Of a stretch of DNA of 64,000 nucleotides, positions 3,903-64,000 are shown one piece after another; the stretch's first letter is position 1, and each line of letters opens with the position of its first letter. The DNA lies in NCBI GenBank assembly GCA_964346455.1, contig CAYFUX010000004.1:44959-108958 (forward strand), in the 5' to 3' direction. Under the pieces are notes generated by a model. It was not told the origin of the DNA. It did not search any database and worked only from the letters and a program-made list of their open reading frames with translations. The position numbers and the translations under genes were made by a program. The DNA comes from an uncultured Spirochaetaceae bacterium (lineage in GTDB: Bacteria; Spirochaetota; Spirochaetia; DSM-16054; Sediminispirochaetaceae).

Positions 3903-3910
3903 GGTGAACG

Positions 3911-10707: not shown

Positions 10708-11271
10708 CTACTGGTTGACCCGCTCGACATACTCTTTGTTTTCGGTGTTGACGAGGATTTTCTCTCCCTCTTTAATGAAGATGGGCACCTTCACCTTCAT
10801 GCCGGTCTCTACCTCTACTATCTTGGAGGCGCCGGTGACTGTGTCGCCTTTGACGGCCTCTTCCGCCTTGGTGACGGTGTAGACGATCTTAAACGGGAGT
10901 TTGATATCCAGAGGCCGGTCATCCCACATTAAAAGGGTGTAAGTCTCGCCCTCTTTCATTAAGTCCCGGTACTCCTCGAAACCCTGTACCGGTACGGTAA
11001 ACTGGTCGTAGGTCTCCAGGTTCATGAAGTGGTAGTTGTCACCGTCGTTAAAGAGGTATTGGCAGTCCATATCCTCCACCAGAATGTCTTCGAGCTGATC
11101 CTGGGTTTTGAAGGTTTCCCGCAATACCTTCCCGGTGGTGGGATTTTTTAGTTTTGCCCGGGTGAAGGCCGAACCTTTGCCCGGGTTCACGAACTCCCGA
11201 TCAGTTACGATATAGGGTTCACCTTTGATGAGGATCGCCATCCCCTTTTCCAATGCTCCGGCTTTGATCAT
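10708..11271 (-). CDS. efp: elongation factor P
   Basis: 187 aa. The conserved loop FVNPGKGSAFTRAKLKN carries the modifiable Lys. Typical three-domain length. Confidence 0.95.
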   Translation of the reverse strand: MIKAGALEKGMAILIKGEPYIVTDREFVNPGKGSAFTRAKLKNPTTGKVLRETFKTQDQLEDILVEDMDCQYLFNDGDNYHFMNLETYDQFTVPVQGFEEYRDLMKEGETYTLLMWDDRPLDIKLPFKIVYTVTKAEEAVKGDTVTGASKIVEVETGMKVKVPIFIKEGEKILVNTENKEYVERVNQ

Positions 11272-11335
11272 ATAGTTACCTCTGTCTCTTTGATAATGGT
11301 GTATACTCGCAGTCCGAGCAACGAGATGTGCAGTG

Positions 11336-28373: not shown

Positions 28374-28387
28374 TGCAACCGTGTGCA
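28374..28387 (+). promoter_or_regulatory. LacI-type operator copy 2 (TGCAACCGTGTGCA)
   Basis: Exact 14-mer 7 nt downstream of the -10 and 22 nt upstream of ATG 28410. Confidence 0.7.
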
Positions 28388-28409
28388 TAAACTACCAAAG
28401 GGAGCTGAC

Positions 28410-49699: not shown

Positions 49700-50705
49700 C
49701 ACGCAAACTGCGGGAATACTCGCGCTTGAGGAACAGCAACGGCTTCAATATATTTGCCATGGGCCCCGCCGGAGCAGGGAGAACATCTATTGTGCAGGAG
49801 TTTGTCGGGAAGCAGGCTACTTAAAAGCCGGTTCCTGACGATTGGTGTTATATCTTCAATTTTGACGAGCCCCATAAGCCGCGGGCGCTGCGGCTGCCTG
49901 CCGGAAAGGGCCGCATGTTTCGGGATGCGATGGACAAGCTCATCAAGAATCTGAAAGAGAATATACGTCAAGCCCCTGAGCGGGAGGATTTTGAGAAGGA
50001 ACGTAGCCGGTTGATGAACGAGATGCAGCGCCGTCAAAGAGAAGAGATGACCTAACTCGAAAAACAGGCCAGGGAGAGGGGCTTCACCATACAGCAGGGG
50101 CCCCGGGGCTTCGTCATTATGCCTCTCAAAGAGGACGGCCAGGGGTGGAAGCATTTTGACCGCGGCGGTACGGCGCGGATGATCGAGTACGGCAGCGAGC
50201 TGACACAGGATCAGAGTAAAATATCGACCCGCTTTGCCGATATCTGTGATTTGGCCAGGGAGGCCGATTATATCGCCAAACAGGAAGATGCCGCGGAGAT
50301 AGGCCGGGACCACGTCCAGCGGGCGGTAGATGCAAAGAAGTACCGTTCCAACCGGATCGAGGAGTTGATCCAGGAGATGATCACTCGGGGCGATATCTTC
50401 ATCGATACCTCCGGCACGGTAGCAGGCCAGGTGAACGGACTCTCCATCGCCCAGCTCGGCGATTACTCCTTCGGCCGTCCTTCCCGAATCACCGCCCGCA
50501 CGTATGTGGGCCGTGCGGGGGTGGTGAATATCGATCGCGAGGTCGTAATGTCCGGCCCCATTCATAATAAAGGGGGCATGATCCTCACCGGGCGACCAAA
50601 AAGATCGAAGGATTCTTCGATGTATGTAAAACGCTCGGCCTCACAGGCGATCAGGGAGTGATCCTTCACGCGGCTTGGGACATGTATTCACAGAAGAAGG
50701 AGTGA
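49700..50705 (+). pseudogene. decayed Lon-like AAA+ protease gene
   Basis: Recognisable segments lie in shifting frames. They include FNIFAMGPAGAGRTSIVQEFVGKQA, DDWCYIFNFDEPHKPRALRLPAGKGRMFRDAMDKLI (an in-frame TAA follows at EEMT*) and QVNGLSIAQLGDYSFGRPSRITARTYVGRAGVVNIDREVVMSGPIHNKG. The tail reads GLTGDQGVILHAAWDMY. Most of the ATPase body is absent. Confidence 0.6.
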
Positions 50706-50730
50706 GCCGTGTTCTCTTTACCTATAAAAG

Positions 50731-50767
50731 GGGCCCGCTTCCGGATCAGAATCCGAAAGCCGGGCCC
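50731..50767 (-). terminator. long imperfect hairpin, probable terminator of the minus-strand operon
   Basis: GGGCCCGCTTCCGGAT-caga-ATCCGAAAGCCGGGCCC. On the minus strand it is followed by CTTTTAT. Confidence 0.4.
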
Positions 50768-50820
50768 AAAGGAAAGTGTTGTATCGGCGGTGACCGTCCG
50801 CCGAAAGCACTTGGTTTTAT

Positions 50821-50869
50821 TAGCCGCTATTAATGGCTGAATGGCTGAATGGCTATTGAATAGCGGCTA
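50821..50869. repeat. 11-bp perfect inverted repeat enclosing a tandem 8-mer (AATGGCTG x about 3)
   Basis: TAGCCGCTATT ... AATAGCGGCTA with AATGGCTGAATGGCTGAATGGCT in the loop. Confidence 0.8.
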
Positions 50870-50929
50870 GTATGCTGCACTCGGTGTACGGAACCTTTTA
50901 CGCCCCCTGTATACGGCACAGAGGGGCCG

Positions 50930-52450
50930 TTAGTAAAGCCCCGTAAAGCCTCCGATGACGTAAATGGTCGCCGAAACGATGATGCTGGCCACGATGGTCA
51001 TGAAAACTCCTGCTAGGGCCATATCCTTGATGGAGAAGTAGCCGGCGGAGTAGGGGATGACGTTGGTAGGAGTGGAGGTGACCAGGATAAAGGCCATGCT
51101 GGTTGTCAGGGCCGCCGGCATGGTGATGGACATCGGCTCGATTCCCAAGTTCTGGGCCAGGGTAATCATAATCGGAATGATGATCGTGGCGGTGACGGTG
51201 TTGCTGGAGAAGGCGATTTTCAGGAAGCTGATGATCAGCACTACCAGAAATACCTGCAGAAACGGGTGGATTCCGCCTATGCCTCCCAAAAAGACTACCG
51301 AGAGCCAGCTCGCCGCACCGGTTTGGTAGAGCATCATGCCGATGGAGATTCCCGAGACGATCAAGAGGATGCTGCTCCAGGAGATCTCCTTCTCGATTTC
51401 GCTCCACTTTATCCCGCTTACTTTAGGGAAAAAGAAGACCGAGGCGGTCAGCAGTACCGGCATACTGATGGGTATGCTGATGCCCAGTATAGTCTCCCAG
51501 AGGGGAGTGGAGAGCCACAGGAACACGGTGGCCAGAAAGATGACGAACGTTACTTTTTCCTCCCGGCCCATTTTCGGAAGGTCGTGATACTCCTGCTGCA
51601 GCTCCTCTTTTGTTTTTTTCAGCCGCGGCATCTCCGGCCGGAAAAAGAGCATAATCATACCCCAACAGGGCACCAGTAGCAGTATGCCTGCCGGCACCCC
51701 GTACATCATCCAGCCGGTGAAGGAGAGTTCCACTCCGGCCATTTCTTTGAGAAAGCCGATGGCAAGCGGGTTGGGTCCGGCCCCGGAGGGGGCGGCAATC
51801 CCACCGATAATCGGCCCCCAGGCGGCGGCGATCATCAGCGCCTTGCCAAAGTTGCTCTTCATCGGCGTCACGCCCTCTTCTTTGAGAATGGAGACGCCCA
51901 GGGGCATCAGCATTGCCGCTACGGCGGTGTTGGTGATCCACATGGAGAGCAGCGCACCCACCGCCAGAAAGCCGAGAATAATCAGGCTGGTGCGGTTGCC
52001 GGTCTTGGAGAGCAGAAACACCGAGATGCGGTTGCCCAGCCCGGACATGGTAATAAAGGAACTGAGGGTCAGCACGCCGATAAAGAAAATGAATATGTGG
52101 TTGCCAAAACCGACGCGCACTACCTCCTGGAAACTCTCCACCCGCAGCAGTGCAAGGAGAAGGATACCCAGGAGCCCGGTGAAATGGAAGGGAATCGCCT
52201 CGGTCATCCAGAGAATCAAGGCGAAGAGCAGTACGCCCATAGCCGTTTGTCCCGCCGGGGTGAGGGTGGCGCTGCCGACGTTTCTGAAACTCTCGGGCAG
52301 GGGGAGGTTGGCTACTACCAGGGCCGCCGCAAAGGCGACGGCGAGAACTATCAACCGAACGGTAGCGGACGGAGAGTGGGAAGGAGAAGGGGGGGTGCTC
52401 CCCTCCGCCTCCCTGGATTCCTGCGCGGTTCGCTCGTCGCCGCCGCTCAT
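50930..52450 (-). CDS. DASS/SLC13-family anion (di-anion) transporter
   Basis: 506-aa polytopic protein with the two hairpin-tip motifs ITNTAVAAMLMP and SSNTVTATIIIPI. Overlaps the upstream gene by 4 nt. Confidence 0.85.
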   Translation of the reverse strand: MSGGDERTAQESREAEGSTPPSPSHSPSATVRLIVLAVAFAAALVVANLPLPESFRNVGSATLTPAGQTAMGVLLFALILWMTEAIPFHFTGLLGILLLALLRVESFQEVVRVGFGNHIFIFFIGVLTLSSFITMSGLGNRISVFLLSKTGNRTSLIILGFLAVGALLSMWITNTAVAAMLMPLGVSILKEEGVTPMKSNFGKALMIAAAWGPIIGGIAAPSGAGPNPLAIGFLKEMAGVELSFTGWMMYGVPAGILLLVPCWGMIMLFFRPEMPRLKKTKEELQQEYHDLPKMGREEKVTFVIFLATVFLWLSTPLWETILGISIPISMPVLLTASVFFFPKVSGIKWSEIEKEISWSSILLIVSGISIGMMLYQTGAASWLSVVFLGGIGGIHPFLQVFLVVLIISFLKIAFSSNTVTATIIIPIMITLAQNLGIEPMSITMPAALTTSMAFILVTSTPTNVIPYSAGYFSIKDMALAGVFMTIVASIIVSATIYVIGGFTGLY

Positions 52451-53343
52451 GCCGAACCTCCCTTGCCGGTTACATCCATGAGCAGTTCTCCCACGTACCG
52501 CGGCCGCGCCGCTACCTTGGCGCCCGCCGCCTCAAGAGCTTTCGCCTTCTCCTCAACGGTTCCGGTGCCACCGGTAACGATGGCCCCGGCGTGCCCCATC
52601 TTCTTGCCTGCAGGAGCGGTTCGCCCGCCCATGAAGGCGACGAGGGGTTTTGTGAAGCGGCCGGCTTCGATCTCCGCCGCAACCTCCTCCTCCATCGTCC
52701 CGCCGAGTTCGCCGATGATTACGACCGCCTCGGTCTCCGGGTCCTTCTCATAGAGCGGCAGCATCTCGGCAAAGCGGGTGCCGGGAACCGGGTCGCCGCC
52801 GACGCCGATCAGGGTAGAGACCCCGAAGCCGGCGGAGACCACCATACTGGTCACCTCGTTGGTGAGCGAGCCGCTGCGCGTCATCACGCCGATGGTCCCG
52901 GGGGTGTAGACGCGCTGTATCCAGTAGGGAAAGAAGCCCATCATCGCCTTGCCGGGGCTGATGACACCGCTGGTGTTGCCGCCGATCACCGCAGCGCCTG
53001 CCGCGCGGGCGGCCTTGCGGATCTGGAGCGCGTCGTGAACCGGTATGCCGTCGGCGACGGTGACGATCGTTTTTATGCCGCCGTCGAGGGCTTCGAAGAC
53101 GGCGTCCTTGGTGAAGCGGGGCGGGACAAAGAGCATTGCCGCATCCGCCGAATGCGCCGCTACCGCCCGCTCGACAGTATGATAGACGGGAATTTCTTCT
53201 ATCTCCTGACCTTCTTTGCCGGGGGTGACGCCGCAGACGATGTCGGTGCCCATCCCCTTCATATGGCTGGTCCAGTAGGCGCCCTCTTTGCCGGTGATGC
53301 CCTGAATCAGAACCTTGGTATGTTGATCGATTACGATGCTCAT
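52447..53343 (-). CDS. ADP-forming acyl-CoA ligase alpha subunit (SucD-like, divergent)
   Basis: SucD architecture with the phospho-His loop GHAGAIV and CoA-binding QGITGKEG. The usual GPNCPG reads GGNTSG. Confidence 0.85.
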   Translation of the reverse strand: MSIVIDQHTKVLIQGITGKEGAYWTSHMKGMGTDIVCGVTPGKEGQEIEEIPVYHTVERAVAAHSADAAMLFVPPRFTKDAVFEALDGGIKTIVTVADGIPVHDALQIRKAARAAGAAVIGGNTSGVISPGKAMMGFFPYWIQRVYTPGTIGVMTRSGSLTNEVTSMVVSAGFGVSTLIGVGGDPVPGTRFAEMLPLYEKDPETEAVVIIGELGGTMEEEVAAEIEAGRFTKPLVAFMGGRTAPAGKKMGHAGAIVTGGTGTVEEKAKALEAAGAKVAARPRYVGELLMDVTGKGGSA

Positions 53344-54464
53344 GCCGTGCCCCCTTTCGCAGCGGCTACCGCCTTGCGGACCGCCTCTTCGGTGTCGAAA
53401 ATCGGTTCCAGCCCGGCCCGCTTGAGGATCGTGATCGCCTCGTCTTCGTTGGTCCCGCGGATGCAGGTGACAATGGGACGGTCCGGCTGAAGCTTACCGA
53501 TCGCCTCGACAACCCCCTGAGCCATCACATCCGCCCGAGCGATCGTGCCAAAGGTGACGATCAGGATGACCTTGGAGGGGTTTTGCAGACACAGTTCCAT
53601 CGCGCGGACGGCGCGGCGATAGTTGGGCCCGCCGAACTCCAGATAATTGGCTACCGTTCCCCCCTCGTAGTTGATTAAATCGTAGACGGTGGTTGTCAGT
53701 CCCGCTCCGGCGCACATAAGGCCGATGTCGCCGTCAAACTGCAGATACGGAATCCCCTCCATAGCCGCCTCGTATTCGGTGTCGCTGTCAAAATAATCGC
53801 GGGTCCTCTCGAACTCTTTTTGTCGGAATCCGGCGTTGTCGTCGATCATCAGCTTGGCGTCGCCGGCCACCAGCGAGTCATCCCCGGTGAGAAAGAGGGG
53901 ATTGATCTCCACCAGTTCGGCGTCGTAGTCCTTAAAAACCCGGTAGAGGGAGAGGATAATCTTTGCCGCCGCCTTGGCCGCCTCGCCGGTGAGGCCCATG
54001 TCGTACGCCGCCGCCCGGGCGTGAAAGGGCTGGAGGCCGCGAAAAGGGTCGAAGCGTTTTTTTACGATCGCCTCCGGCTTTTCCCGGGCGAGGGTTTCGA
54101 TCTCTACGCCCCCCTCGCCGCAGGCGATCACCATGCCCTCTGCACGTTCCGGATCCACCGTGATGGAGAGGTAGAGCTCCCGTTTGATATCCACCGCCTC
54201 CTCAAACAGGATCTTGGGAATCCCTTCCGGACGGGCGAAGAGTTCCTGCGCCAGCTGACCGGCTTCCTCCCCGCTTTTCGCCAGCTTGATCAGTCCCGCC
54301 TTACCGCGGCCGCCGGCAAGGACCTGGCTTTTGACGGCACAGGGAGCGCCGACCTTTTCCGCTGCCGCGGCGACTTCTTCGGGGCTCGCCGCCAGTCCGC
54401 TTTTCGGAACCGGGATGCTATAGCGGGAGAACAGCTCCTTGGCTTGGTATTCGAAGAGCTTCAT
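53340..54464 (-). CDS. ADP-forming acyl-CoA ligase beta subunit (SucC-like, divergent)
   Basis: ATP-grasp N-terminus MKLFEYQAKELFSRY...GGRGKAG. The usual FGGIVRC loop reads FGTIARA. Confidence 0.85.
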   Translation of the reverse strand: MKLFEYQAKELFSRYSIPVPKSGLAASPEEVAAAAEKVGAPCAVKSQVLAGGRGKAGLIKLAKSGEEAGQLAQELFARPEGIPKILFEEAVDIKRELYLSITVDPERAEGMVIACGEGGVEIETLAREKPEAIVKKRFDPFRGLQPFHARAAAYDMGLTGEAAKAAAKIILSLYRVFKDYDAELVEINPLFLTGDDSLVAGDAKLMIDDNAGFRQKEFERTRDYFDSDTEYEAAMEGIPYLQFDGDIGLMCAGAGLTTTVYDLINYEGGTVANYLEFGGPNYRRAVRAMELCLQNPSKVILIVTFGTIARADVMAQGVVEAIGKLQPDRPIVTCIRGTNEDEAITILKRAGLEPIFDTEEAVRKAVAAAKGGTA

Positions 54465-55894
54465 GCCTGCCTCCCTTCGTAGCTGTCATAGCGTTTCCAG
54501 AGGTCCCCCCACATCTCATCATCACTCGGTTTTACCGGATCGAAAGGCTCGGAGACCCAGGTAACGTTGAGAAAGTGTTTGTAGTAGATATTTTCGGTGG
54601 TGATGTTGCCGCCCCAGGTGCCGCAGCCGAGGGTCACGGTGGAGGGCATGCCGTTGAAGAAATTGCCGCCGTTGGCCGGTGCTTGAGGCTGACGAACCAT
54701 AATGCGGCTGGTTTTCATCTCCCGGCTCATTGTGTCGATATACTCGCTATTCCAACTGTGAATGCCGCAGGAGTGTCCGCTACCCGCATAGTCGGTGATC
54801 TCTTTCAGCAGCTCCAAGCCGTCGCGGAAATCTTCGCACTCCCACAGGGTCAGCACCGGGGAGATCTTTTCACCCGAAAAACGGTCACCGGCCGCGGGAC
54901 GGGAGCCCTCCACCGCCAAGACCTTGGTACCCTTGGGAACGGAGAGGCCGGCATCGGCGGCGATTTTTTCCGCCGATTGGGAGATTATTTTAGGGTTGAT
55001 CACTATTTTTCCCTTTTTGTTGGGCTGCCACATCCACTTTTCCAGCTCTTCTTTCTCTTCCGGCGTGCAGAGATAGGTGCTGTTCTCCTGGAGGGCGTTG
55101 AGAGCTTCCTCGTAGACATCTTCGTGGATGATGGCCGAGTTTTCCGAAGAGCAGCTGGTGGCGTAGTCGAAGGCCTTGGAGAGGACGATCTTGCTCGCCG
55201 CGTCCGAGACATCGGCGTCCTCGGCAATGATCTGCACTGCGTTTCCGGGGCCTACCCCGTAGGCGGGGGTGCCGCTCGAATAGGCGGCCTTGACCATAGG
55301 CCCGCCGCCGGTGGCCAGCACAAGATCCACTTGGCGCATCAATTCACCGGTCAATTCAATAGAGGGCTCCTCGATGATCTGCACCAGATCCTCCGGCGCC
55401 CCCACTTTACGCAGGCCGGCACGCATGAAGTCTACCGCCATCTTGGAACAGCCTTTTGCCGAGGGATGGGGAGCAAAGATGACCGCATTGCCGCCCTTGA
55501 GAATGGAGACGGCGTTGCTTCCGGGGGTGGCGGTGGGGTTGGTTACCGGGGTAAGCGCGCCGACGACGCCGACGGGCTTGCCGTATTTTTTGATTTTGTT
55601 TCGGGTGTCCTCTTCGATAAGCCCAACCGACGGGGCGCCTTTGATATCGCGAACCACGCCGAGAATCTTGCCCTTGTGCTTTTTGATTTTATCCTCGACG
55701 TTGCCCATGCCGGTCTCTTTCACCGCCGCCCGGGCGAGCTGTTCGATATTTTTATCCTCATAGACTTTCCAGGCGGCGGCGAGCGTCAAGTCGTCCACTT
55801 GCTGCTGAGAATACCCGGCGGCGATCTCCTGGGCCGCCCTGGCTTTTTCCATGAGGCGTCCGATGATGCGACTATTCTCCTCGTTCTTTTCCAT
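54461..55894 (-). CDS. CoA-acylating aldehyde dehydrogenase (Clostridium kluyveri SucD/EutE-type)
   Basis: VGALTPVTNPTATP, GVGPGN, catalytic Cys region TSCSSENS and C-terminal TLGCGTWGGN. 477 aa, with no NAD(P)+ hydrolytic-ALDH Glu motif noticed. Confidence 0.85.
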   Translation of the reverse strand: MEKNEENSRIIGRLMEKARAAQEIAAGYSQQQVDDLTLAAAWKVYEDKNIEQLARAAVKETGMGNVEDKIKKHKGKILGVVRDIKGAPSVGLIEEDTRNKIKKYGKPVGVVGALTPVTNPTATPGSNAVSILKGGNAVIFAPHPSAKGCSKMAVDFMRAGLRKVGAPEDLVQIIEEPSIELTGELMRQVDLVLATGGGPMVKAAYSSGTPAYGVGPGNAVQIIAEDADVSDAASKIVLSKAFDYATSCSSENSAIIHEDVYEEALNALQENSTYLCTPEEKEELEKWMWQPNKKGKIVINPKIISQSAEKIAADAGLSVPKGTKVLAVEGSRPAAGDRFSGEKISPVLTLWECEDFRDGLELLKEITDYAGSGHSCGIHSWNSEYIDTMSREMKTSRIMVRQPQAPANGGNFFNGMPSTVTLGCGTWGGNITTENIYYKHFLNVTWVSEPFDPVKPSDDEMWGDLWKRYDSYEGRQA

Positions 55895-55907
55895 ATCCCC
55901 TCCTTGT

Positions 55908-55929
55908 AAAAAAGCCGCCCGACGGCGGC
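55908..55929 (-). terminator. short GC hairpin plus T6 between the isomerase and aldehyde dehydrogenase genes (internal attenuator)
   Basis: The minus strand reads GCCGCC-gtcg-GGCGGC-TTTTTT, then the RBS ACAAGGAGGGG and ATG. Confidence 0.45.
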
Positions 55930-55999
55930 CGGCGGGGCTTTGGGGATGTAGGTCCTCTATCGCCTCTCGCCGGCCCTCAGCGGGCGGCCCTAACCGTTC

Positions 56000-56476
56000 T
56001 TACTTGAACTGTTCGTTCTCTATATCCTGCACCTTGCCAAAGGCGTTGGTCAGGAAGTCCTTCTTGAACTCCATCTTTTCGGTAAATTCGACCGAAAGCC
56101 AGGCGTCGACGATTTGGGTACCTAAAAAGGGTGCCGTGATCCAGCCTCCCATGGTGAGTACGTTGGCGTTGTTGATGATCTTGCCCCGTTCGCCGGCAAA
56201 GATGCCGTCCGCCACTGCGGCGTAGACGCCCTTGTGCTTGTTGGCGACGATCGCCATGCCCTGACCGGTTCCGCAGATCAGAATTCCTTTCTGAGCGTCT
56301 CCGTTTTGGATTGCTTTGGCAACCTTAGGGGCCTGTGCCCAATACGGCTGAGGATGGTCGGCATCCTCGATGCCGTGATCGGTCACTTCGATGTCTTCCC
56401 GCTTGCCAAGGTGCTCCACCACAGCGTTCTTGAGTGGAAATCCGGATAGATCCGATGCTATTGCTATTTTCAGCAT
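56000..56476 (-). CDS. RpiB/LacA/LacB-family sugar isomerase (divergent)
   Basis: Family core GILICGTGQGMAIVANK with the catalytic Cys. 158 aa. Confidence 0.85.
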   Translation of the reverse strand: MLKIAIASDLSGFPLKNAVVEHLGKREDIEVTDHGIEDADHPQPYWAQAPKVAKAIQNGDAQKGILICGTGQGMAIVANKHKGVYAAVADGIFAGERGKIINNANVLTMGGWITAPFLGTQIVDAWLSVEFTEKMEFKKDFLTNAFGKVQDIENEQFK

Positions 56477-56501
56477 AATGCTTCTCCTTTTTATCGTGAA
56501 A

Positions 56502-57443
56502 TTATCGCGATTTCTTCAGCAACGTGCGTGCTTTTTCAGCAATGTTCGCAGCGTTCATGCCAAAGCGCTCCTGCAGGTAATCGAGGGTTCCGACTTCTCC
56601 GAACTCTTCGTTCACGCCGACTCGGCTCAGAAAAGCTGGCTGTTCCTCTGCAAGCGTCTCGGCGACCGCCGAACCGAGGTAGTTGAGAATCTGGTGGTTC
56701 TCGCAGGTGACAATGGCACCGGTTTTCTTGGCGTAGGTGGTGACCAGCTCGCGGTCGATCGGCTTGACGGTGTGCATGTCGATAACCGCCGCTTCGATTC
56801 CTTCTTCGGCAAGCATGTCTGCCGCCTTCAGCGCTTCGGGGACCAGTACAAAGCCGGTGGCGATCAGCGTCACGTCTCCGCCCTCGCGCAGGACTATCCC
56901 TTTCCCCAGTTCGAAGTTTTGCGTCTCGTCATAGATGGCGTTGCCGCCCTTGCGGTGCAGACGCATGTAGGTGCAGCCATAATGCTCGTACGATTTGCGT
57001 ACCAGTGCCGCAAGAGACACGTTGTCCGAAGGTTCGAAAACCGTCAGACTGGGAATGTTGCGCATGATGCCGCCGTCTTCCAGGGACATATGGGTGCCTC
57101 CGTTGAAGGCGGCGGTGATCCCGGGATCAGTTCCCACCAATTTCACATTGAGGTGGGCATAGTTGGCGGAGATGAAGAATTGGTCGTAGGTCTTACGGCC
57201 GGCAAAGGAGGTAAAGCTGGCGGCAAAGGGTATTTTCCCCACCGAAGAGAGCCCCGAGGCAACGCCGACCATATTGGCCTCTGCCACACCGATGTCGAAG
57301 GTACGCTGCGGAAACTTTTCGCTAAAGGGAACGGTGCCGCTCGCCTTCATAAGGTCCGCTTCCAGAATTACCACTCGCTCGTCCTGTTCAGCGAGTTCTA
57401 TGAGGGTGTCGTTGTAGGTTGCTCGCATATCTTGGGTACTCAT
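56502..57443 (-). CDS. transketolase, C-terminal (pyrimidine-binding) subunit
   Basis: RTFDIGVAEANMVGVASGL and the typical C-terminal domain. Its start ATG shares nt 57443 with the upstream stop (TAATG). Confidence 0.9.
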   Translation of the reverse strand: MSTQDMRATYNDTLIELAEQDERVVILEADLMKASGTVPFSEKFPQRTFDIGVAEANMVGVASGLSSVGKIPFAASFTSFAGRKTYDQFFISANYAHLNVKLVGTDPGITAAFNGGTHMSLEDGGIMRNIPSLTVFEPSDNVSLAALVRKSYEHYGCTYMRLHRKGGNAIYDETQNFELGKGIVLREGGDVTLIATGFVLVPEALKAADMLAEEGIEAAVIDMHTVKPIDRELVTTYAKKTGAIVTCENHQILNYLGSAVAETLAEEQPAFLSRVGVNEEFGEVGTLDYLQERFGMNAANIAEKARTLLKKSR

Positions 57444-58279
57444 TACGCCTCTCCTTTCTCCAGACGAGCGATCGCCTCTTTGGCCGTCTCGTAGTCGTAC
57501 TTCATATTGTGATTCCCCAGGTCGCCCTCGGCAAAGTAGGCGCCCTTGCCTTTGACCGTATCCAGAACAATCATCGTGGGGCGGCACTGCTCCTCCTTGG
57601 CCTTTTTGATAGCCCAGTCGATTGCAGTAAGCGAGTGGCCGTCCACCCGCAGCACGTTCCAGCCGAAACCGACCCATTTTGCATTGAGGTCGTCCAGGTT
57701 CATGATGTCGGACGTGTAGCCGTCGATCTGCATCTTGTTGTAGTCGGTGAACGCAATGAGACGGTTGAGCTTGTAGTTGGGGGCGCACATGGCCGCCTCC
57801 CAAACCTGCCCCTCGTTGCTTTCACCGTCGCCGATAATGACATAGGTGTAGGCGTCGATGCCGTCGAGCCGATGACCGAGGGCTTTGCCGATGCCGGCGG
57901 AGAGCCCCTGGCCGAGTGAGCCGGCGCTCATGTCGATCCCCGGGGTGCGCACCATGTCAGCGTGGCTCGGTAGCTTGGTTCCTCCCTGGTTGAGGGTGTA
58001 GAGCCACTCTTTGGGAAAGTAGCCCTTGTCGGCGAGGACGCTGTACAGCGCCGGGCCGGCATGACCCTTTGAGAGGATAAGCTGATCCCGATCCCGCTTT
58101 TTCGGGTTTTGTGGGTCGATATTCATGTGGCGATAGTAAAGGCTGGTCAGCACCTCGACTATAGACAGGGAGCCGCCGATATGACCGACGCCCAGGTAGC
58201 CGATGGCGTCGATGGTCAGGATTCGAATCCGCTTGGCGGTCTCCTCAAGTTCCTGCAGTGTGTCTTTTTCCATCTGCAT
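57443..58279 (-). CDS. transketolase, N-terminal (thiamine diphosphate-binding) subunit
   Basis: GHIGGSLS, SKGHAGPALY and the ThDP motif GDGESNEGQVWEA. Confidence 0.9.
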   Translation of the reverse strand: MQMEKDTLQELEETAKRIRILTIDAIGYLGVGHIGGSLSIVEVLTSLYYRHMNIDPQNPKKRDRDQLILSKGHAGPALYSVLADKGYFPKEWLYTLNQGGTKLPSHADMVRTPGIDMSAGSLGQGLSAGIGKALGHRLDGIDAYTYVIIGDGESNEGQVWEAAMCAPNYKLNRLIAFTDYNKMQIDGYTSDIMNLDDLNAKWVGFGWNVLRVDGHSLTAIDWAIKKAKEEQCRPTMIVLDTVKGKGAYFAEGDLGNHNMKYDYETAKEAIARLEKGEA

Positions 58280-58325
58280 CTCTCCTTCATGTACGGATAA
58301 TCTTATTATTTACTTCGTGAAAATA

Positions 58326-58354
58326 ATTATACCGGAGAGTTCCTCTTTTGCCAA
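58326..58354 (-). promoter_or_regulatory. sigma70-like promoter TTGGCA-17-TATAAT for the transketolase operon
   Basis: The minus strand reads TTGGCA (58354-58349), a 17-nt spacer, then TATAAT (58331-58326). An AT palindrome ATAATCTTATTAT (58297-58309) lies in the leader. Confidence 0.55.
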
Positions 58355-58519
58355 GCGTGTTTTTGGGGTTTTCGGTGAATTCGGCCGGCTTAGCTACAGC
58401 AAGGTCTATAGCGGGGACCAGGCAGTGGCTGTGCGGTGCTGCTGGCTGCGGAAAAAACTATGCAGGAATTGGAAGTTCTGTTACGATGTAGATATATTTA
58501 GTTGCGGAAAGAAAAGAAG

Positions 58520-59686
58520 ATGACGAGAGAGCCTTTACGCGGAAACGATGTGCGTCTACAGAATGAAAAACTCGTTTTGAGTATTATACACAAGAGCGAC
58601 GGGATAAGCCAGTCCGATGTGGTGCAGATGACCGGACTCAAGCCTCCTACGGTGTACCGTATCTTCTCCAGCCTCGAGGAGGAGGGCTTGATTCTGGTCA
58701 GCCGCAAGAAACAAGAGTACGGCGAGCGGAAAGGGCGCCGGCCGGTGTATTACCGCACAAATCCTGATGCGTTCTATATCATCGGCATAGATTTCTGGGT
58801 GCGGTCGATGGCGATTAATGTCCTCGATTTTGGTGGAAATGCCGTCTATGAGGAGATTGTCGAACTCTCTCAACACCCGGACACCGCGGAGGTGGCGGAG
58901 ACTCTTGTCAGCCTGACTGAGAAAGCGATCAATGCTTCCGGGATTTCACGGCAAAAACTCTTGGGCATCGGAATCGGCGCACCGGGAAGGGTGGATATTG
59001 AAGCCGGAAAGGTGATCCATTACGGGCGAATCCGGGGAATGACCGACTTTTCCATCCAGGCCCCGGTGGAGGAGGCGTTTGGAGTGCCGGTGCATGTGCA
59101 CAACAACGCTTCGGTCATTGCGCTGAGTGAGTATCGCTACGGAGTGGCCCGGGAGACCGAAACCCTCTTGACGGTGCTCATTCGCAGCGGGGTCGGAGGC
59201 GCCTTTATCAACCACGGCCGTATATTTGTTACGCAGCACCGTACAACGATGGAAGTTGGGCATATGTCGGTGGATCTTCAGGGAAGGCGCTGCGATTGCG
59301 GCGGGACGGGCTGTCTGGAGACCTACCTCTCGGAGGACGCTATTTTGAGGGATTGCGCCCAACGGGGGCTTCCCGGAGAACTGGAGGCCCTCGACAGAGG
59401 GATAGAAGCGGGAGATGAGAAGCTTCTTTCACTGCTGCGAGAGAAGACCGCGGTCTTGGCGGAGGGTCTGCGCAGCCTTTTCCAGCTTTTCGGTCCGGAT
59501 AGTTTCCTGCTGGTCACCCGCTCCCGGCGTCTTTCGGAGTTTTTGGCCCAGGAAACCGCCGCAGCGCTCAGCTGCAGTGCCGCTGCGGGCGACGGCAGCA
59601 CATCTCGAATTCTTTCCGCACCCTACGACCCTATTATGGCCGGCAAAGGGGCCGCCGACCTCGTATTGGACCATTTCTTTGCTTAA
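58520..59686 (+). CDS. ROK-family transcriptional regulator (NagC/XylR-like)
   Basis: N-terminal winged helix-turn-helix (ISQSDVVQMTGLKPPTVYRIFSSLEEEGLI). ROK sugar-kinase-like fold with the zinc motif HMSVDLQGRRCDCGGTGCLE. Start at ATG 58520. Confidence 0.85.
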   Translation: MTREPLRGNDVRLQNEKLVLSIIHKSDGISQSDVVQMTGLKPPTVYRIFSSLEEEGLILVSRKKQEYGERKGRRPVYYRTNPDAFYIIGIDFWVRSMAINVLDFGGNAVYEEIVELSQHPDTAEVAETLVSLTEKAINASGISRQKLLGIGIGAPGRVDIEAGKVIHYGRIRGMTDFSIQAPVEEAFGVPVHVHNNASVIALSEYRYGVARETETLLTVLIRSGVGGAFINHGRIFVTQHRTTMEVGHMSVDLQGRRCDCGGTGCLETYLSEDAILRDCAQRGLPGELEALDRGIEAGDEKLLSLLREKTAVLAEGLRSLFQLFGPDSFLLVTRSRRLSEFLAQETAAALSCSAAAGDGSTSRILSAPYDPIMAGKGAADLVLDHFFA

Positions 59687-59696
59687 CTTCCCTTGC

Positions 59697-59737
59697 CTAC
59701 CTTCTACCGGTTGGCATGGACAACCGGTAGAAGGTAG
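59697..59737 (+). terminator. perfect 17-bp stem hairpin after the ROK gene (no strong T-tract)
   Basis: CTACCTTCTACCGGTTG-gcatgga-CAACCGGTAGAAGGTAG. Confidence 0.45.
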
Positions 59738-59846
59738 AATTTCAATGCCGAGATAGAGATCTATCAAACACGGCGATTTGTTAGACTTTCAAAGGACAGT
59801 TTCCTTTTAAAGATAAAGAATGAACGATTCGGAGGGTTGGTACGTT

Positions 59847-60959
59847 ATGGAAAAGCTCCTTTTTGCAGACATGCAGGCCGATTTCAGCAACTCGTTGGAG
59901 AAGAAGTTCCGCAAAATTCTGAAAAAGAGCGAGTGGTTTGAAACCATCAAAGAAGGGGAAATCGTAGCCGTGAAGGTACACGTCGGCGAACGCGGCAATT
60001 TGGGATACATCAACCCCAATTTTGCACGCATTGTAGTTGAAGAAATTAAAGCCCGGGGAGCCACTCCCTACCTGACCGATACCAATACGCTCTATTCCGG
60101 CGGGCGGCATAATGGAATACAACACTCCATCACCGCTATGCAGCACGGTTTCGGTTATGCAGCCGTAGGTGCGCCGTTCCTTCCGGCGGACGGGGTGCGT
60201 GGTCTCGATTACCGCGAGGTGGAAGTAGACGGCAGGCATTATACAAAGGCCAAGCTTGCCGGGGGAATCCTGCAGGCGGAAAAGATTATTTTTCTCACCC
60301 ATTTCAAGGGGCATATCGAAGCCGGTTTTGGCGGAAGCATTAAAAATCTCTCGATGGGCTGTGCCTCGGTGGCGGGAAAAATGGAGCAGCATGCCGCCGC
60401 CAAGCCGAGTGTGGACTTCGAGAAGTGCGTCGGCTGCCGGCAGTGTTACTGGGCATGTCCTGTGGACGCCATCACTATGGAAAACAAGAAGGCGGTTATC
60501 GACTACGATCTGTGCATTGGCTGCGGGCAGTGTGTGGCGGCCTGCAACTACGGCGCCATGAATCCGGGCTCCGCTGCGGAGACGAAGGATTTTATCGAGA
60601 AAGTGACCGAGTACGCCTATGCCGCCCGGGAGTATTTTGGTGAAAATGCCTTCTACATTAACTTTGCCATGAACATTACCCCGGACTGCGACTGCTGGCC
60701 GGCAAACGATGTGCCGGTGGTGGAAGATGTCGGCTTTCTCGCAGGACGGAATCCTTTTGCTTTGGACCGGGCTACGATGGACTTGGTCAACGAATCGAGA
60801 GCTAACGTCGGCAGCCGCCATTACGAAAAGCTCTCCGGCGAGCGCAAGGAAGATCTCTTTGGCCATGTGTGGGAGGAGGTGCCGGTGGGTACCACCTTCG
60901 ACTATGTACAGAAGCAGTTCAACGTCGACTTAGGTTACGAGCTGCGAACCATTAAGTAA
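59847..60959 (+). CDS. DUF362-domain protein with an inserted 2x[4Fe-4S] ferredoxin domain
   Basis: DUF362-like N-terminus (VAVKVHVGERGNLGYINP...PYLTDTNTLY...FKGHIEAGFGGSIKNLSMG). CVGCRQCYWACP and CIGCGQCVAACN. Start probably at ATG 59847. Confidence 0.8.
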   Translation: MEKLLFADMQADFSNSLEKKFRKILKKSEWFETIKEGEIVAVKVHVGERGNLGYINPNFARIVVEEIKARGATPYLTDTNTLYSGGRHNGIQHSITAMQHGFGYAAVGAPFLPADGVRGLDYREVEVDGRHYTKAKLAGGILQAEKIIFLTHFKGHIEAGFGGSIKNLSMGCASVAGKMEQHAAAKPSVDFEKCVGCRQCYWACPVDAITMENKKAVIDYDLCIGCGQCVAACNYGAMNPGSAAETKDFIEKVTEYAYAAREYFGENAFYINFAMNITPDCDCWPANDVPVVEDVGFLAGRNPFALDRATMDLVNESRANVGSRHYEKLSGERKEDLFGHVWEEVPVGTTFDYVQKQFNVDLGYELRTIK

Positions 60960-61237
60960 GCTGTTGTGCAGAAAGCGGAGCTGCTGTAAAAGCGGAGGGG
61001 GAGCTGTTGGAAAGGCTTCCCCTCCGCCTTGATACCCCTCCACTCCCGCATCCCCGCCGCATTGTCATAGGCGGGCATCTTATGTACAATGAGCATTCTC
61101 ATGCACGCTGCACTGTCTTTGGCCTTACGCATAACACCTCTAGATCGTAATACCTGCACGGCAAATTTTTATTGACATACCGGATAAGCCGTGGTTTACT
61201 TCCTTGTAGAAAGAAAATAATTTTCTAAGGAGGAACG

Positions 61238-62512
61238 ATGAAACGGACTATTTCCGTAGGCTTGTTTGTAGCGGTTGCTCTTCTTTTCCTGGCAATGCCT
61301 CTTTTCGCGGGAGGAGAGCAGGAAGAGAAGGGAGGCCCGGTAACTCTGAACTGGCCCTGTATCTGGGTCGGTGAAGATGCCAAGGCCGATGTAGTGGCTG
61401 AACTGGTAAAAGAGTTCAATGAGAAGCACAAGGGTGAGATCAAGGTCGAAATCGAGGAGATGCCCTCCTACGATGTCTATGACAAGAAGATCCTCGCGCA
61501 GATTTCCGGCGGCGAGGTGCCCGATATTTTTACCCTCAAATGGACACCCGATACGCGCGATTTCTACGAAGGCGACACCCTGATGGACATGACCGATGAG
61601 CTGCAGGGCAGCTGGGGCGACGACTTCAGCTCCGGGCTCATCAGCGAGGTGACGATCGACGGCCAGGTCAAGGTGCTGCCCTATACCACGGCAATCACGC
61701 CGCTCTGGTATAATGAGGACCTCTTTAAGCAGGCCGGTATCGACGAGTTCCCCGAGACCTACGATGAGTTCTGGCAGGCCGCCGAAAAGCTGAAGGCCGA
61801 GGGCATTACGCCTACCAGCCAGATGACCGGCGGAGCCAACGCCTGGACCAGTATGCTGTGGTACAGCCACATCATGGCCAGCGTAGGCGGACCGGACGTA
61901 TGGGACAAACCGCTCACCGATCCGGTGTATGTCGAAGGTGCCAAGATTCTCAAGCGCCTCTATCAGAACGGCAACACCACCAAGGACGCCATCGGCGGCG
62001 GACCGGAGATCCCCTCGGGCCACTACCTGGCCGAGCGGACCGCAGTCTTTTGCAACGGCCCCTGGTTCATCGGCAACATCCGGGAGAATGCTCCTGAGGT
62101 GTATGAGTCCACTAAGCTCACCTCCGCCCCCGCCGCTGAAGACGGCCGTAAAGGCGCTCAGGTCGGCTTTATCCAGACCGTCCTCGCCTCCGGCGCCAGC
62201 ACTCCTCGCAAGCAGGAAGCGGCAAAGACCTTCCTCAAGTATATGGCTAAACCGGAGAACGCCAAGCGCATCTCTCTGGATTCCGGCTCTCTGATGGCGA
62301 TTAACTTCTCCGTCGGTGAAGACGAAGAGATCGATCCCCTGCAGAAGGCCTTTATCGAGAAGCAGGAAGAAGCCTCTTTCATCGTAAGCCATCTCTCCGG
62401 AAAGTTTTCCGCCTCGGTGGTGCAGGAGTTCGGACCGGCTCTCGATCAGTTGGCTATGGATAGAGCCACTCCCGAAGAGTTCGTAGAAATGCTGCACGAG
62501 GCTAGTCAGTAA
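61238..62512 (+). CDS. CUT1-family sugar ABC transporter substrate-binding protein
   Basis: Signal peptide then a family-1 SBP fold, 424 aa. Two permease genes follow. Confidence 0.9.
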   Translation: MKRTISVGLFVAVALLFLAMPLFAGGEQEEKGGPVTLNWPCIWVGEDAKADVVAELVKEFNEKHKGEIKVEIEEMPSYDVYDKKILAQISGGEVPDIFTLKWTPDTRDFYEGDTLMDMTDELQGSWGDDFSSGLISEVTIDGQVKVLPYTTAITPLWYNEDLFKQAGIDEFPETYDEFWQAAEKLKAEGITPTSQMTGGANAWTSMLWYSHIMASVGGPDVWDKPLTDPVYVEGAKILKRLYQNGNTTKDAIGGGPEIPSGHYLAERTAVFCNGPWFIGNIRENAPEVYESTKLTSAPAAEDGRKGAQVGFIQTVLASGASTPRKQEAAKTFLKYMAKPENAKRISLDSGSLMAINFSVGEDEEIDPLQKAFIEKQEEASFIVSHLSGKFSASVVQEFGPALDQLAMDRATPEEFVEMLHEASQ

Positions 62513-62593: not shown

Positions 62594-63478
62594 ATGAACA
62601 CCTGGAAGAGCAACTGGAAGGGGATCATTCTCTTTATGATCCCGATCGGGCTAATGTATACGACCTTCTTTATTTATCCCTTCGGCTTTGTCTTCTTTTC
62701 CAGTCTGACGGAATGGAACGGAATCAGCGCGATGGAGTTCCAGGGACTCTCCAACTACACGAAGCTGCTGCAGGCTTCGACTACTCAGATCGCCATTCGG
62801 AACAATATCTTCTGGGCTCTTTCCCTCGGATTTCTACAAGTGGGTTTTGCAGCTATTATTGCGTTTATTCTGGCGCGTAAGCCCCGCTTTTGGAAATCAT
62901 TGCGGACTATCTATTTTGTCCCCAAGGTTATCTCAATGGTGGCTATCGCGATGCTCTGGAAAGCGGTGTACAATGCCGAATTCGGAGCACTGAATGCGGT
63001 CCTTACCCTCTTCACCGGTCAGGAGTGGAGCCACAACTGGCTGGGGAGTTTCGGCACCGCCCTGCCGGCGATCATTGCCCAGGAGGTGATGTACATCGGC
63101 TACTTCATGATCATCATCGTGGCGGGGGTCATGTCGATTCCCAAAACGTTCTACGAAGCAGCCGAGATCGACGGAGCGTCGGTGCTGCAGCAGGAACGTC
63201 ATATAACGATTCCCATGGTGTGGGGCATCATCGTGACCGCCATGACGCTAGCTATGGCCTACGGTCTGCGGCACTTTGAGGCTACCTTTCTTATGACCGG
63301 CGGCGGTCCCGGTCACAGCACTACCACACTTGCCCTCACTATGTACGATAAAATCGGCGCCAGGAAGCTTGGAGAGGCGAGCACGTTGGGAACGATCCTC
63401 GTGATAGTCGGGTTTACGGTAATAGTGACGCTCAACCGGACCTTGGGGAAGAAAGGCCTCACCGGGGAAGATCAGTAA
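62594..63478 (+). CDS. sugar ABC transporter permease (MalF-like)
   Basis: EAA loop FYEAAEIDGASVLQQERHITIPMV. 294 aa. Confidence 0.9.
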   Translation: MNTWKSNWKGIILFMIPIGLMYTTFFIYPFGFVFFSSLTEWNGISAMEFQGLSNYTKLLQASTTQIAIRNNIFWALSLGFLQVGFAAIIAFILARKPRFWKSLRTIYFVPKVISMVAIAMLWKAVYNAEFGALNAVLTLFTGQEWSHNWLGSFGTALPAIIAQEVMYIGYFMIIIVAGVMSIPKTFYEAAEIDGASVLQQERHITIPMVWGIIVTAMTLAMAYGLRHFEATFLMTGGGPGHSTTTLALTMYDKIGARKLGEASTLGTILVIVGFTVIVTLNRTLGKKGLTGEDQ

Positions 63479-63487
63479 TTGGGAGAG

Positions 63488-64000
63488 ATGCGTACTATGA
63501 TACTTGAAAAGCTAAAATATATTACGGTCCACACGGTTAAATGGGCCTACCTACTATTTTTTCTTGCCGTGGCTCTTCTGCCCCTCATCTGGCTGTTCAT
63601 ATCTTCGTTCAAAACGGAGGCTGAGTTCAATACGCAGCCTCTCGGGCTTCCAGAGGTGTGGCAGTTTCAGAATTATATCAATGCGGTGAGCGTGGCCAAT
63701 ATGCATGTCCTGTTTATGAACTCGATCATTATTGCCACTACTGCGACGCTGCTCAATCTTTTGGTGACCTCAATGGGAGCGTTTGTAATAAGCCGCGAGC
63801 ACTTTCGTTTTCGGGACAGCATATCCAATGTGATCGTCAGCGGGGTGGTGATGCCTATCGTGGCATTTATGGTTCCGTACCTGGCGATTATTCGCACCTT
63901 GGGGCTGTATGATACTCGTATGGCATTGATTATTACCTATGCGGCCATTAATCTTCCTATCAGCTTTTTCCTTGTCAAAAGCTTTATGGTGGGAATACCG
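63488..64000 (+). CDS. sugar ABC transporter permease (MalG-like), 3' end outside the window
   Basis: Not in the ORF track because it runs off the window. My frame-2 translation is MRTMILEKLKYITVHTVKWAYLLFFLAVALLPLIWLFISSFK...LGLYDTRMALIITYAAINLPISFFLVKSF, open to nt 64000. The start is 63488 or 63497. Confidence 0.8.
   Translation, partial: MRTMILEKLKYITVHTVKWAYLLFFLAVALLPLIWLFISSFKTEAEFNTQPLGLPEVWQFQNYINAVSVANMHVLFMNSIIIATTATLLNLLVTSMGAFVISREHFRFRDSISNVIVSGVVMPIVAFMVPYLAIIRTLGLYDTRMALIITYAAINLPISFFLVKSFMVGIP

Follow-up and report, generated by a model that had tools for sequence, protein, structure and literature searches.

A gene cluster that very probably (about 85%) encodes the sulfoacetate-forming, oxidative variant of the sulfoglycolytic transketolase (sulfo-TK) pathway was identified in an uncultured microbial-mat spirochaete. 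The cluster lies in a stretch of 64,000 nucleotides (hereafter the window; contig CAYFUX010000004.1 of assembly GCA_964346455.1, positions 44,959 to 108,958 of the forward strand), in which seven co-directional minus-strand genes span positions 50930-58279 according to the table of open reading frames and the sequence. Sulfoquinovose is a plant and cyanobacterial sulfosugar; in this pathway sulfoacetate is excreted and one extra ATP is gained. The sulfo-TK assignment had been put forward in an original prediction, and it is supported here by a glycoside hydrolase family 31 (GH31) gene just past the window, by the SauS model as the best match of the dehydrogenase, and by syntenic clusters that bear SqvD and SqvB.

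In the proposed scheme, every step of which is derived from homology and genomic context, sulfoquinovosyl glycerol or sulfoquinovose would be taken up by a CUT1-type ATP-binding cassette (ABC) system (61238 onward), and a YihQ-type GH31 enzyme encoded past the window end would liberate sulfoquinovose. An isomerase that was not found in the window or the next 10 kb would convert sulfoquinovose to 6-deoxy-6-sulfofructose. The split transketolase would transfer C1-C2 to glyceraldehyde-3-phosphate, yielding xylulose-5-phosphate and 4-deoxy-4-sulfoerythrose. Sulfoerythrose would then be converted to sulfoerythrulose by the RpiB-like isomerase, and a second transketolase cleavage would yield a second xylulose-5-phosphate and sulfoacetaldehyde. 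The SauS-like dehydrogenase is predicted to convert sulfoacetaldehyde to sulfoacetyl-coenzyme A (CoA) and NADH, and the SucCD-like ligase to convert sulfoacetyl-CoA to sulfoacetate and ATP; the sulfoacetate would be exported by the DASS carrier. A fermentative mat spirochaete would thereby be equipped to use four of the six sulfoquinovose carbons and to gain extra ATP, and sulfoacetate handed to sulfite-respiring partners would fit current models of anaerobic sulfur cycling.

Enzymes encoded by the operon

The family assignments of all seven operon proteins were confirmed with Pfam and NCBIfam, and the order of the encoded domains is Transketolase_N; Transket_pyr and Transketolase_C; LacAB_rpiB; Aldedh; ATP-grasp_2 and Ligase_CoA; CoA_binding and Ligase_CoA; and DASS symporter. 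The sqwH-like start codon shares one base with the stop codon TAA of the sqwG-like gene (junction TAATG at 57443), and overlaps of 4 nt occur at 54461-54464, 53340-53343 and 52447-52450. The co-directional arrangement and the overlaps of 1-4 nt, as first described, are thus borne out by the coordinates of the open reading frames.

The sqwG-like gene (57443..58279, minus strand) encodes the N-terminal, thiamine pyrophosphate (TPP)-binding subunit of a transketolase (278 amino acids; PF00456, E 9e-52); the top PDB match of this subunit is the split-chain transketolase 6yak. Its translation displays the GDG...N TPP motif, and orthologues with 51-83% identity are present in 40 syntenic loci. The sqwH-like gene (56502..57443, minus strand) encodes the pyrimidine-binding and C-terminal subunit (313 amino acids; PF02779 and PF02780). 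The two genes are predicted to supply the SqwGH-type transketolase of two subunits that the pathway requires, an orthology backed by synteny in the 40 loci.

The sqwI-like gene (56000..56476, minus strand) encodes an isomerase of the RpiB/LacAB family (158 amino acids; PF02502, E 9e-38), which is proposed as the candidate enzyme for the conversion of 4-deoxy-4-sulfoerythrose to sulfoerythrulose. The protein retains the catalytic CGTG motif. Its scores lie below the RpiB equivalog cutoffs (97 versus 139 bits for TIGR01120 and 123 versus 135 bits for NF004051), and SDLSG, IINNAN, MGGW and an FTEKM-type C-terminal extension replace SDHGG, EHNDAN, LGER and GGRHxxR, so that neither the score nor the SDHGG, HN(D/N)AN and GGRHxxR motifs of ribose-5-phosphate isomerase B are found in it. 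Of the 30 RpiB-like proteins aligned from syntenic loci, 29 have the noncanonical signature; the remaining one, a canonical RpiB present as a second copy in locus L014, provides the contrast within one alignment. The replaced motifs are those that we take to supply the phosphate-binding His and Arg residues of RpiB, and a substrate other than a phosphate ester is in keeping with their loss. RpiB-type enzymes act on substrates with erythro configuration at C2-C3, while sulfoquinovose is threo; on these stereochemical grounds it is unlikely that SqwI performs both isomerizations. In published work, the activity of SqwI itself has so far the status of a proposal (PMC9594981).

The sqwD-like gene (54461..55894, minus strand) encodes a protein of 477 amino acids that is predicted from NCBIfam, PDB and synteny to be a CoA-acylating sulfoacetaldehyde dehydrogenase. 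Its top NCBIfam model is NF047625, acylating sulfoacetaldehyde dehydrogenase SauS (522 bits), followed by AdhE (425 bits) and EutE (346 bits). The catalytic Cys motif is present in the translation, and homologues with 61-76% identity were found in 64 genomes. The top PDB match is 8cei, the acylating succinate-semialdehyde dehydrogenase SucD of Clostridium kluyveri, a likeness that agrees with the description of SqwD and SauS in the literature (PMC10413351).

The next two genes are predicted to encode the two-subunit, ADP-forming ligase required by the sulfoacetate-forming variant. The beta subunit is a SucC-like protein of 374 amino acids with ATP-grasp_2 and Ligase_CoA domains (53340..54464, minus strand; 347 bits versus the SucC cutoff of 370), and the CoA-binding, phosphohistidine subunit is a SucD-like protein of 298 amino acids (52447..53343, minus strand; NF004230, 333 bits versus a cutoff of 336), which retains the GHAGA phosphohistidine motif and is 65-82% identical in syntenic loci. 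In an alignment of 41 orthologues from syntenic loci with Thermus SucC, the SucC-like protein has FGTIARAD for FGGITRAD, YLEF-GGPN for FLDIGGGA and CAGAGLTTTV for GNGAGLVMYT. The three motifs are invariant or nearly so across the 42 orthologues, with substitutions in the loops that align with FGGI and GGGA of true SucC. Neither subunit reaches the score of succinyl-CoA synthetase SucCD, and FGTI and GGPN stand in place of FGGI and GGGA. The comparison of hidden Markov models with canonical SucCD and RpiB, proposed as a check in the original prediction, placed the SucC-like, SucD-like and RpiB-like proteins all under the respective equivalog cutoffs. In Bilophila wadsworthia, the homologues SauCD and SauS act on sulfoacetate and sulfoacetyl-CoA, not on succinate (PMC10413351).

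The named homologues of the ligase beta subunit (P0121-P0240) are called succinate-CoA ligase subunit beta, acetate-CoA ligase family protein or ATP-grasp protein, and the label sulfoacetate-CoA ligase occurs in none of them. The motifs FGTIARAD and YLEFGGPN of the ligase and SD[LK]SG, IINNAN and MGGW of the isomerase could serve for the correct annotation of such mislabelled genes.

The last gene (50930..52450, minus strand) encodes an anion carrier of the DASS family (506 amino acids; TIGR00785, 231 bits versus a cutoff of 199). It is proposed as the candidate sulfoacetate exporter, the direction of transport being deduced from the context. SauI, a carrier of the same family, sits in the sulfoacetate cluster of B. 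wadsworthia (PMC10413351).

Conservation of the gene cluster

Related loci were collected by a scan with the dehydrogenase as query in one genome per GTDB species, the neighbourhood being defined as 10 kb from the dehydrogenase gene. The scan returned 64 loci, most of them in metagenome-assembled genomes (MAGs) of Spirochaetota (Sediminispirochaeta, Alkalispirochaeta and Sphaerochaetaceae) and the others in Clostridia (Vallitaleaceae, Christensenella) and in Acholeplasmataceae or Izemoplasmataceae. SucC/D-like genes are found near the dehydrogenase gene in 60 of the 64 loci, the split transketolase in 40, the RpiB-like gene in 43, the ROK regulator in 32 and GH31 in 18. A DASS carrier adjoins the ligase genes in 44 loci, and a MatC-type carrier takes its place in 6. 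A FucI-like gene, the top NCBIfam model of which is sulfoquinovose isomerase SftI, is present in 23 loci and was taken as SqvD on this basis; DUF4867/SqvB is present in 6. At least one of GH31, SqvD and SqvB lies within 10 kb at 28 of the 40 transketolase loci.

The order transketolase-isomerase-dehydrogenase-ligase-carrier is found in spirochaetes, and the order dehydrogenase-ligase-carrier-transketolase-isomerase in several Clostridia; the two halves are linked in both. The gene arrangement is beyond chance; the same block recurs in dozens of genomes. In Acholeplasmataceae the order is GH31, two permeases, the substrate-binding protein, SqvD, the N-terminal (TktN) and C-terminal (TktC) transketolase subunits, RpiB, MatC, dehydrogenase, SucC and SucD. 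The identities of these proteins to those of the window are 56-58% (TktN), 49-54% (TktC), 44-45% (RpiB-like), 62-65% (dehydrogenase), 59-62% (SucC-like) and 69-74% (SucD-like).

The dehydrogenase module also occurs by itself, with neither a transketolase nor an RpiB-like gene within 10 kb in 20 of the 64 loci. In three loci, L016 (469-9106), L024 (8518-9918) and L035 (2524-9874), a transketolase-free dehydrogenase-ligase-DASS module adjoins a class-III aminotransferase gene, the product of which has taurine:2-oxoglutarate aminotransferase as its top PDB relative. Chromosome OY782041.1 holds both kinds of locus, L035 with the aminotransferase and L064 with the sulfo-TK genes. Transamination of taurine also yields sulfoacetaldehyde. 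This second source and the presence of both locus kinds on one chromosome suggest that the module acts on sulfoacetaldehyde in both contexts. In the three loci, taurine or N-acyl-taurine could be converted to sulfoacetate with a yield of ATP, a route of which no description was found in the literature examined. Two amidohydrolase-like genes and a GntR regulator also surround the module in these loci.

Five further loci from Christensenella and other Clostridia MAGs (L040, L041, L044, L046 and L049) have the module next to GH31 and contain no transketolase within 10 kb. A class-V aminotransferase together with a GFO/IDH/MocA oxidoreductase and/or NagB-like and NagA-like genes was found in L040, L041 and L044, a gene list pooled over the three loci, the full set not being demonstrated in any single one.

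Putative sulfoquinovosidase and sugar importer

On the divergent side, the order of genes on the source contig (L001) is ROK regulator, DUF362 gene, substrate-binding protein, two permeases and GH31. The contig was extended downstream by an exact-protein look-up of permease 1, which led to the 161-kb contig Ga0153774_1000013 of JGI 3300012002; copies of the locus in ENA are labelled microbial mat metagenome. The GH31 gene (L001 11779-13803, plus strand, equivalent to window positions 64372-66396) immediately follows the permease genes, with its start 372 nt outside the window, and encodes a YihQ-type protein of 674 amino acids. The protein scores 866 bits against the YihQ equivalog cutoff of 553 (NF007746) and aligns over its full length with the sulfoquinovosidases of Escherichia coli (5aed, E 4e-202) and Agrobacterium tumefaciens. 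The predicted YihQ-type GH31 sulfoquinovosidase that the sulfo-TK pathway requires is therefore part of the cluster as judged from its sequence. GH31, isomerase and mutarotase had been listed as absent from the window, correctly, GH31 sitting just beyond its end. Of the genes that an extension of the contig had been expected to reveal, GH31 was found, and an isomerase and a mutarotase were not found in the next 10 kb. A search with the PolA open reading frame, aimed at the upstream side of the contig, gave no match.

The substrate-binding protein of a CUT1-type sugar ABC system (SBP_bac_1/8) is encoded at 61238..62512 on the plus strand, followed by the genes for permease 1 (62594..63478, plus strand; PF00528) and permease 2 (63497..64000, plus strand), the latter being cut by the window end and located at 10904-11743 of the source contig. 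Copies of the binding protein with 35-75% identity occur in 16 syntenic GTDB loci and in L070. The importer is proposed, from its context, to take up sulfoquinovose or sulfoquinovosyl-glycerol. The claim that a ROK regulator and a sugar ABC importer flank the operon is confirmed by the family matches (PF00480; SBP_bac_1/8 and PF00528).

Transcription and regulation

The operon promoter, TTGGCA-17-TATAAT (58326..58354, minus strand), matches the sigma-70 consensus at 11 of 12 positions and is the top site in a scan of 11 kb (50400-61400), in agreement with the original prediction. Its -35 and -10 blocks are conserved across six relatives in the intergenic alignment. As a class, promoter-like and terminator-like sites showed no enrichment over shuffles in the region scanned. 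At the other end of the operon, folding of 50700-50935 gave a long GC hairpin followed by UUUU at about 50731..50768 (minus strand), a likely operon terminator, so that the terminator-like hairpin described earlier is real. The DASS-gene 3' untranslated region (50700-50930) contains several strong hairpins (z = -5.3 versus shuffles) and, at 50832-50854, an 8-nt unit, AATGGCTG, repeated 2.9 times.

A second GC hairpin followed by T6 was found by folding and scanning between the sqwI-like and sqwD-like genes (55913..55930, minus strand). Its existence had been noted before, together with the suggestion that it divides two unrelated units. The hairpin stands, and the suggestion does not, since conservation of the hairpin was not found in close relatives while the linkage of the genes is conserved. 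A role as a conserved module boundary was rejected on the same ground, and the hairpin is possibly a partial terminator or an element of RNA stability.

A regulator of the ROK family is encoded divergently from the operon (58520..59686, plus strand; start according to the JGI gene call). It has an N-terminal winged helix and is NagC/Mlc-like (PF00480 and HTH_24), the NagC and Mlc models matching below their cutoffs. A perfect palindrome, TTATTT-N9-AAATAA, lies at 58306..58326, where it covers the final base of the -10 box together with the region of the transcription start. No other perfect copy occurs within the window, and no other long block is invariant in the intergenic alignment, which has otherwise diverged; perfect copies occur at the same position upstream of TktN in five loci (L004, L005, L006, L051 and L070). 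The palindrome is probably the operator of the divergent ROK regulator, with binding deduced from position and conservation. The shape of the palindrome is one that we take to recall NagC/Mlc-type operators. A ROK repressor bound over the -10 box would probably keep expression of the operon off. No description of an operator of a ROK-type regulator for sulfoquinovose clusters was found in the literature examined, and the conserved palindrome is a testable operator for such a regulator.

A copy of the palindrome with two mismatches (61200..61220), 18 nt before the start codon of the binding-protein gene, is a putative second operator. Matches with at most two mismatches number 4 in the window versus 1.04 expected, and 4 were reached in 1 of 100 shuffles; the copy at 61200-61220 on its own could be due to chance. 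A perfect 17-nt inverted repeat, CTACCTTCTACCGGTTG / CAACCGGTAGAAGGTAG, is located at 59697-59737, just past the stop codon of the ROK gene. The repeat shares positions with a promoter-like site upstream of the DUF362 gene and could be a terminator or an operator.

Weighing of the evidence and alternative explanations

Several observations weigh against the sulfoacetate-forming sulfo-TK assignment. The score of the dehydrogenase (522 bits) is below the SauS equivalog cutoff of 600, and SauI, a member of the carrier's family, is a proposed importer (PMC10413351). Sulfoquinovosidases have a signature consisting of Q/E-RWY for sulfonate recognition, an Asp nucleophile and an Asp acid/base (PMC12780224). 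In the GH31 protein of the cluster, the sulfonate-binding Arg301 is replaced by Gln (KQLEW versus KRVMW), a departure from the Q/E-RWY signature. No gene for SqvD, SqvB, YihS or a mutarotase was detected by tblastn and Pfam in the 64-kb window or in the next 10 kb, the tblastn queries for the window being SqvD and SqvB from related loci. Among the best 120 of 1388 SqvD relatives obtained with a spirochaete query (at least 61% identity), none was assigned to the source contig. A NagB-like protein that recurs in some related clusters (L070, L064, L041 and L044) was considered as well and set aside, since a homologue is missing from the window. SqvD is missing within 10 kb at 19 of the 40 transketolase loci, and for this reason a distant SqvD gene is the simplest explanation of the local absence of the isomerase.

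The GH31 protein retains Q288, W304, Y508, D405 and D472. Gln301 is found in all seven aligned spirochaete copies of the Gln type, in one Acholeplasmataceae paralogue and in L070, and Arg301 is retained in Firmicutes and most Acholeplasmataceae copies. L014 and L065 each carry one GH31 of each type, a co-occurrence that suggests distinct specificities. In the spirochaete clusters L020, L064 and L066 the Gln-type GH31 is accompanied by SqvD and SqvB, and the Gln-type proteins are still read as putative sulfoquinovosidases for that reason. They represent a defined target for enzymology. The Gln-type clade comprises L001 11779-13803, L011, L018, L020, L039, L064, L066, L070 and L065 13493-15463. 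A basic residue that follows the GEQ(F/Y)S motif (R137 here) correlates with the Gln type: among 8 such copies it is Arg or Lys in 7 and His in one. However, compensation of the lost Arg301 by this residue was considered and left as a weak proposal, since L070 breaks the correlation.

There is a small chance that the lineage runs the sulfo-TK pathway without the canonical entry enzymes, by means of a new isomerase or on another sulfo-glycoside, and that the dehydrogenase, ligase and DASS genes form a portable cassette for the ATP-yielding conversion of sulfoacetaldehyde to sulfoacetate, which seems to be tied to taurine transamination in sister genomes. Slimmer is the chance that the lineage is a real variant in which the same enzymes serve a related substrate other than sulfoquinovose (another sulfosugar or sulfo-glycoside) or in which entry proceeds via an undescribed isomerase. 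The vicinity of the operon, devoid of SqvD and SqvB, would be accounted for in this way, as would the change of Arg301 to Gln in seven spirochaete GH31 proteins, the presence of both types in L014 and L065, and a binding protein without a known sulfoquinovose-binding relative among its top PDB matches. However, Gln-type clusters (L020, L064 and L066) do carry SqvD and SqvB, the other active-site residues listed above are retained in GH31, and with 19 of 40 such operons devoid of a nearby SqvD a distant gene is simpler. A neutral or deoxy sugar, including 6-deoxyglucose, might instead be degraded to glycolaldehyde or acetaldehyde, then to glycolyl-CoA or acetyl-CoA and finally to the free acid and ATP, as the original prediction had considered for glycolaldehyde. 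The loss of motifs taken to bind phosphate in the RpiB-like protein, the lack of the charged Arg301 in GH31 and the resemblance of the dehydrogenase to acetaldehyde dehydrogenases are compatible with such a route, which is nevertheless very improbable: a carrier for di- or trianions (DASS or MatC) is conserved by the ligase and would be needless for acetate or glycolate, SauS is the top model of the dehydrogenase, the module is tied elsewhere to a taurine-type aminotransferase, clusters with an Arg-type YihQ have downstream enzymes 60-75% identical to those described here, and the characterized homologues are specific for sulfoacetate (PMC10413351).

Still less probable is a reductive direction, in which sulfoacetate would be imported, activated with ATP and reduced to sulfoacetaldehyde. 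The homologous SauCD-SauS-SauI system of B. wadsworthia runs that way (PMC10413351), and the 20 loci with the module but without transketolase or RpiB-like genes could be seen in the same light. In the window, however, the module shares a promoter and translational coupling with the transketolase and isomerase genes and has a sulfoquinovosidase and a sugar importer as neighbours; searches of the window and the 10-kb extension yielded neither an isethionate sulfolyase nor Xsc nor a sulfite reductase, and sulfoacetaldehyde obtained from imported sulfoacetate would have no productive use by transketolase. The least probable explanation is that of two unrelated units, one converting succinate to succinyl-CoA and succinate-semialdehyde with a dicarboxylate carrier and the other consisting of a transketolase and RpiB of the pentose-phosphate pathway. 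C. kluyveri SucD as the best solved relative of the dehydrogenase, ligase scores only just under the SucCD cutoffs, the terminator-like hairpin between the units and the naming of homologues as succinate-CoA ligase in public databases are in its favour. The separate succinate module, an alternative raised in the original prediction, is disfavoured by the linkage of the units in 40 of 64 genomes and in two gene orders, by the lack of conservation of the hairpin, by the near-invariant replacement of the SucC substrate-loop motifs in the orthologues, by the absence of canonical RpiB motifs from the isomerase and by the sulfoquinovosidase in the cluster.

Comparison with known systems

The locus matches the published scheme of the oxidative sulfo-TK pathway (PMC9594981, PMC12890257), and it is very likely a spirochaete copy of this already published pathway, the picture of which is left unchanged. 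The sulfoacetate-forming variant had been credited to Liu et al. 2021 as established; it was only predicted there. According to the accounts in PMC12890257 and PMC11659671, it was demonstrated with recombinant enzymes of Acholeplasma sp. by Chu et al. 2023 (Appl Environ Microbiol) and is stated for Spirochaetes, Firmicutes and Tenericutes.

Like the Acholeplasma sp. system (SqvD, SqwGH, SqwI, SqwD and SqwKL), the window locus encodes a split transketolase, an RpiB-family isomerase, a predicted CoA-acylating dehydrogenase and an ADP-forming ligase of two subunits, with GH31 and an ABC importer in the cluster. Unlike the Acholeplasmataceae loci, it has a DASS instead of a MatC-type carrier, a ROK instead of GntR/UTRA regulators and a Gln-type instead of an Arg-type GH31, and it is devoid of SqvD; this comparison is with loci from recovered MAGs, which may differ from the strain of Chu et al. 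2023. The isethionate-forming sulfo-TK pathway of Clostridium sp. MSTE9 (Liu et al. 2021, ACS Catal), as outlined in PMC9594981, has the upper pathway of YihQ, SqwGH and SqwI in common with the window locus, whereas sulfoacetaldehyde is converted to isethionate by SqwF and exported by SqwE in strain MSTE9. The window locus contains neither an Fe-dependent alcohol dehydrogenase (Fe-ADH) nor a TauE-type gene, and encodes oxidation with substrate-level phosphorylation.

The SauCD-SauS-SauI cluster of B. wadsworthia resembles the locus in its homologous ADP-forming ligase, acylating sulfoacetaldehyde dehydrogenase and carrier of the sodium:sulfate symporter family (PMC10413351). However, it operates in the opposite direction, spends ATP and NAD(P)H and feeds isethionate sulfolyase for sulfite respiration (PMC10413351), and it has no transketolase or glycosidase, unlike the window locus. 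SucCD and C. kluyveri SucD (8cei) share the fold, the catalytic machinery and the GHAGA and catalytic Cys motifs with the ligase and dehydrogenase described here, which differ in their sub-cutoff scores, in the replaced substrate-loop motifs and in their context of sulfosugar catabolism. The small additions made by the locus are the candidate ROK operator, the signatures by which ligase and isomerase can be told apart from SucC and RpiB, a clade of Gln-type glycosidases, a module that is portable, and the gap in annotation.

Other features of the region

A DUF362 gene with two 4Fe-4S motifs (59820-60959, plus strand) is located divergently from the operon between the ROK and binding-protein genes and is bracketed by inverted repeats of its own. 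DUF362 belongs to the same Pfam clan as the N-terminal domain of LarA (PMC11770544). The gene recurs beside the cluster in L051 and L070, and a metagenome scan returned only 7 loci. In L076, a copy with 71% identity is directly followed by a homologue of the 376-amino-acid VWA-like gene, the pair spanning 3294-5592; no other homologue of a cluster gene was found on this contig, and copies with 66% and 55% identity occur in unrelated contexts. A role of DUF362 as the missing isomerase was rejected in view of the very large family, the copies outside the pathway context and the appearance of an older neighbour. The VWA-like gene (L001 13890-15020) follows GH31 on the source contig and, with DUF362, brackets the genes for the importer and GH31, which look like a sulfoquinovose uptake cassette inserted between these two older neighbours.

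Other glycosidase genes were observed in related clusters. GH116 recurs in spirochaete sulfo-TK clusters, in 8 of the 64 GTDB loci (L020, L027, L033, L037, L039, L042, L052 and L062) and in L070. Genes for a GH4 (NAD-dependent) glycosidase and for an APH-like kinase lie next to the importer genes of L029 and L036, two loci in which GH31 was not detected; GH4 is also present in L045.

Elsewhere the window contains housekeeping genes, transporters for sugars and betaine, and two genes for glycoside phosphorylases of family GH65 (28383-31394 and 31599-33914), one of them with a fused HAD (beta-phosphoglucomutase-like) domain. Positions 34085-35134 encode a LacI regulator. A search of the 64-kb window against Rfam gave zero matches. 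The gene at 15430-16773 encodes a large-subunit domain of [FeFe]-hydrogenase with ferredoxin-like motifs, which is consistent with an anaerobic fermenter able to dispose of the NADH from the oxidative branch.

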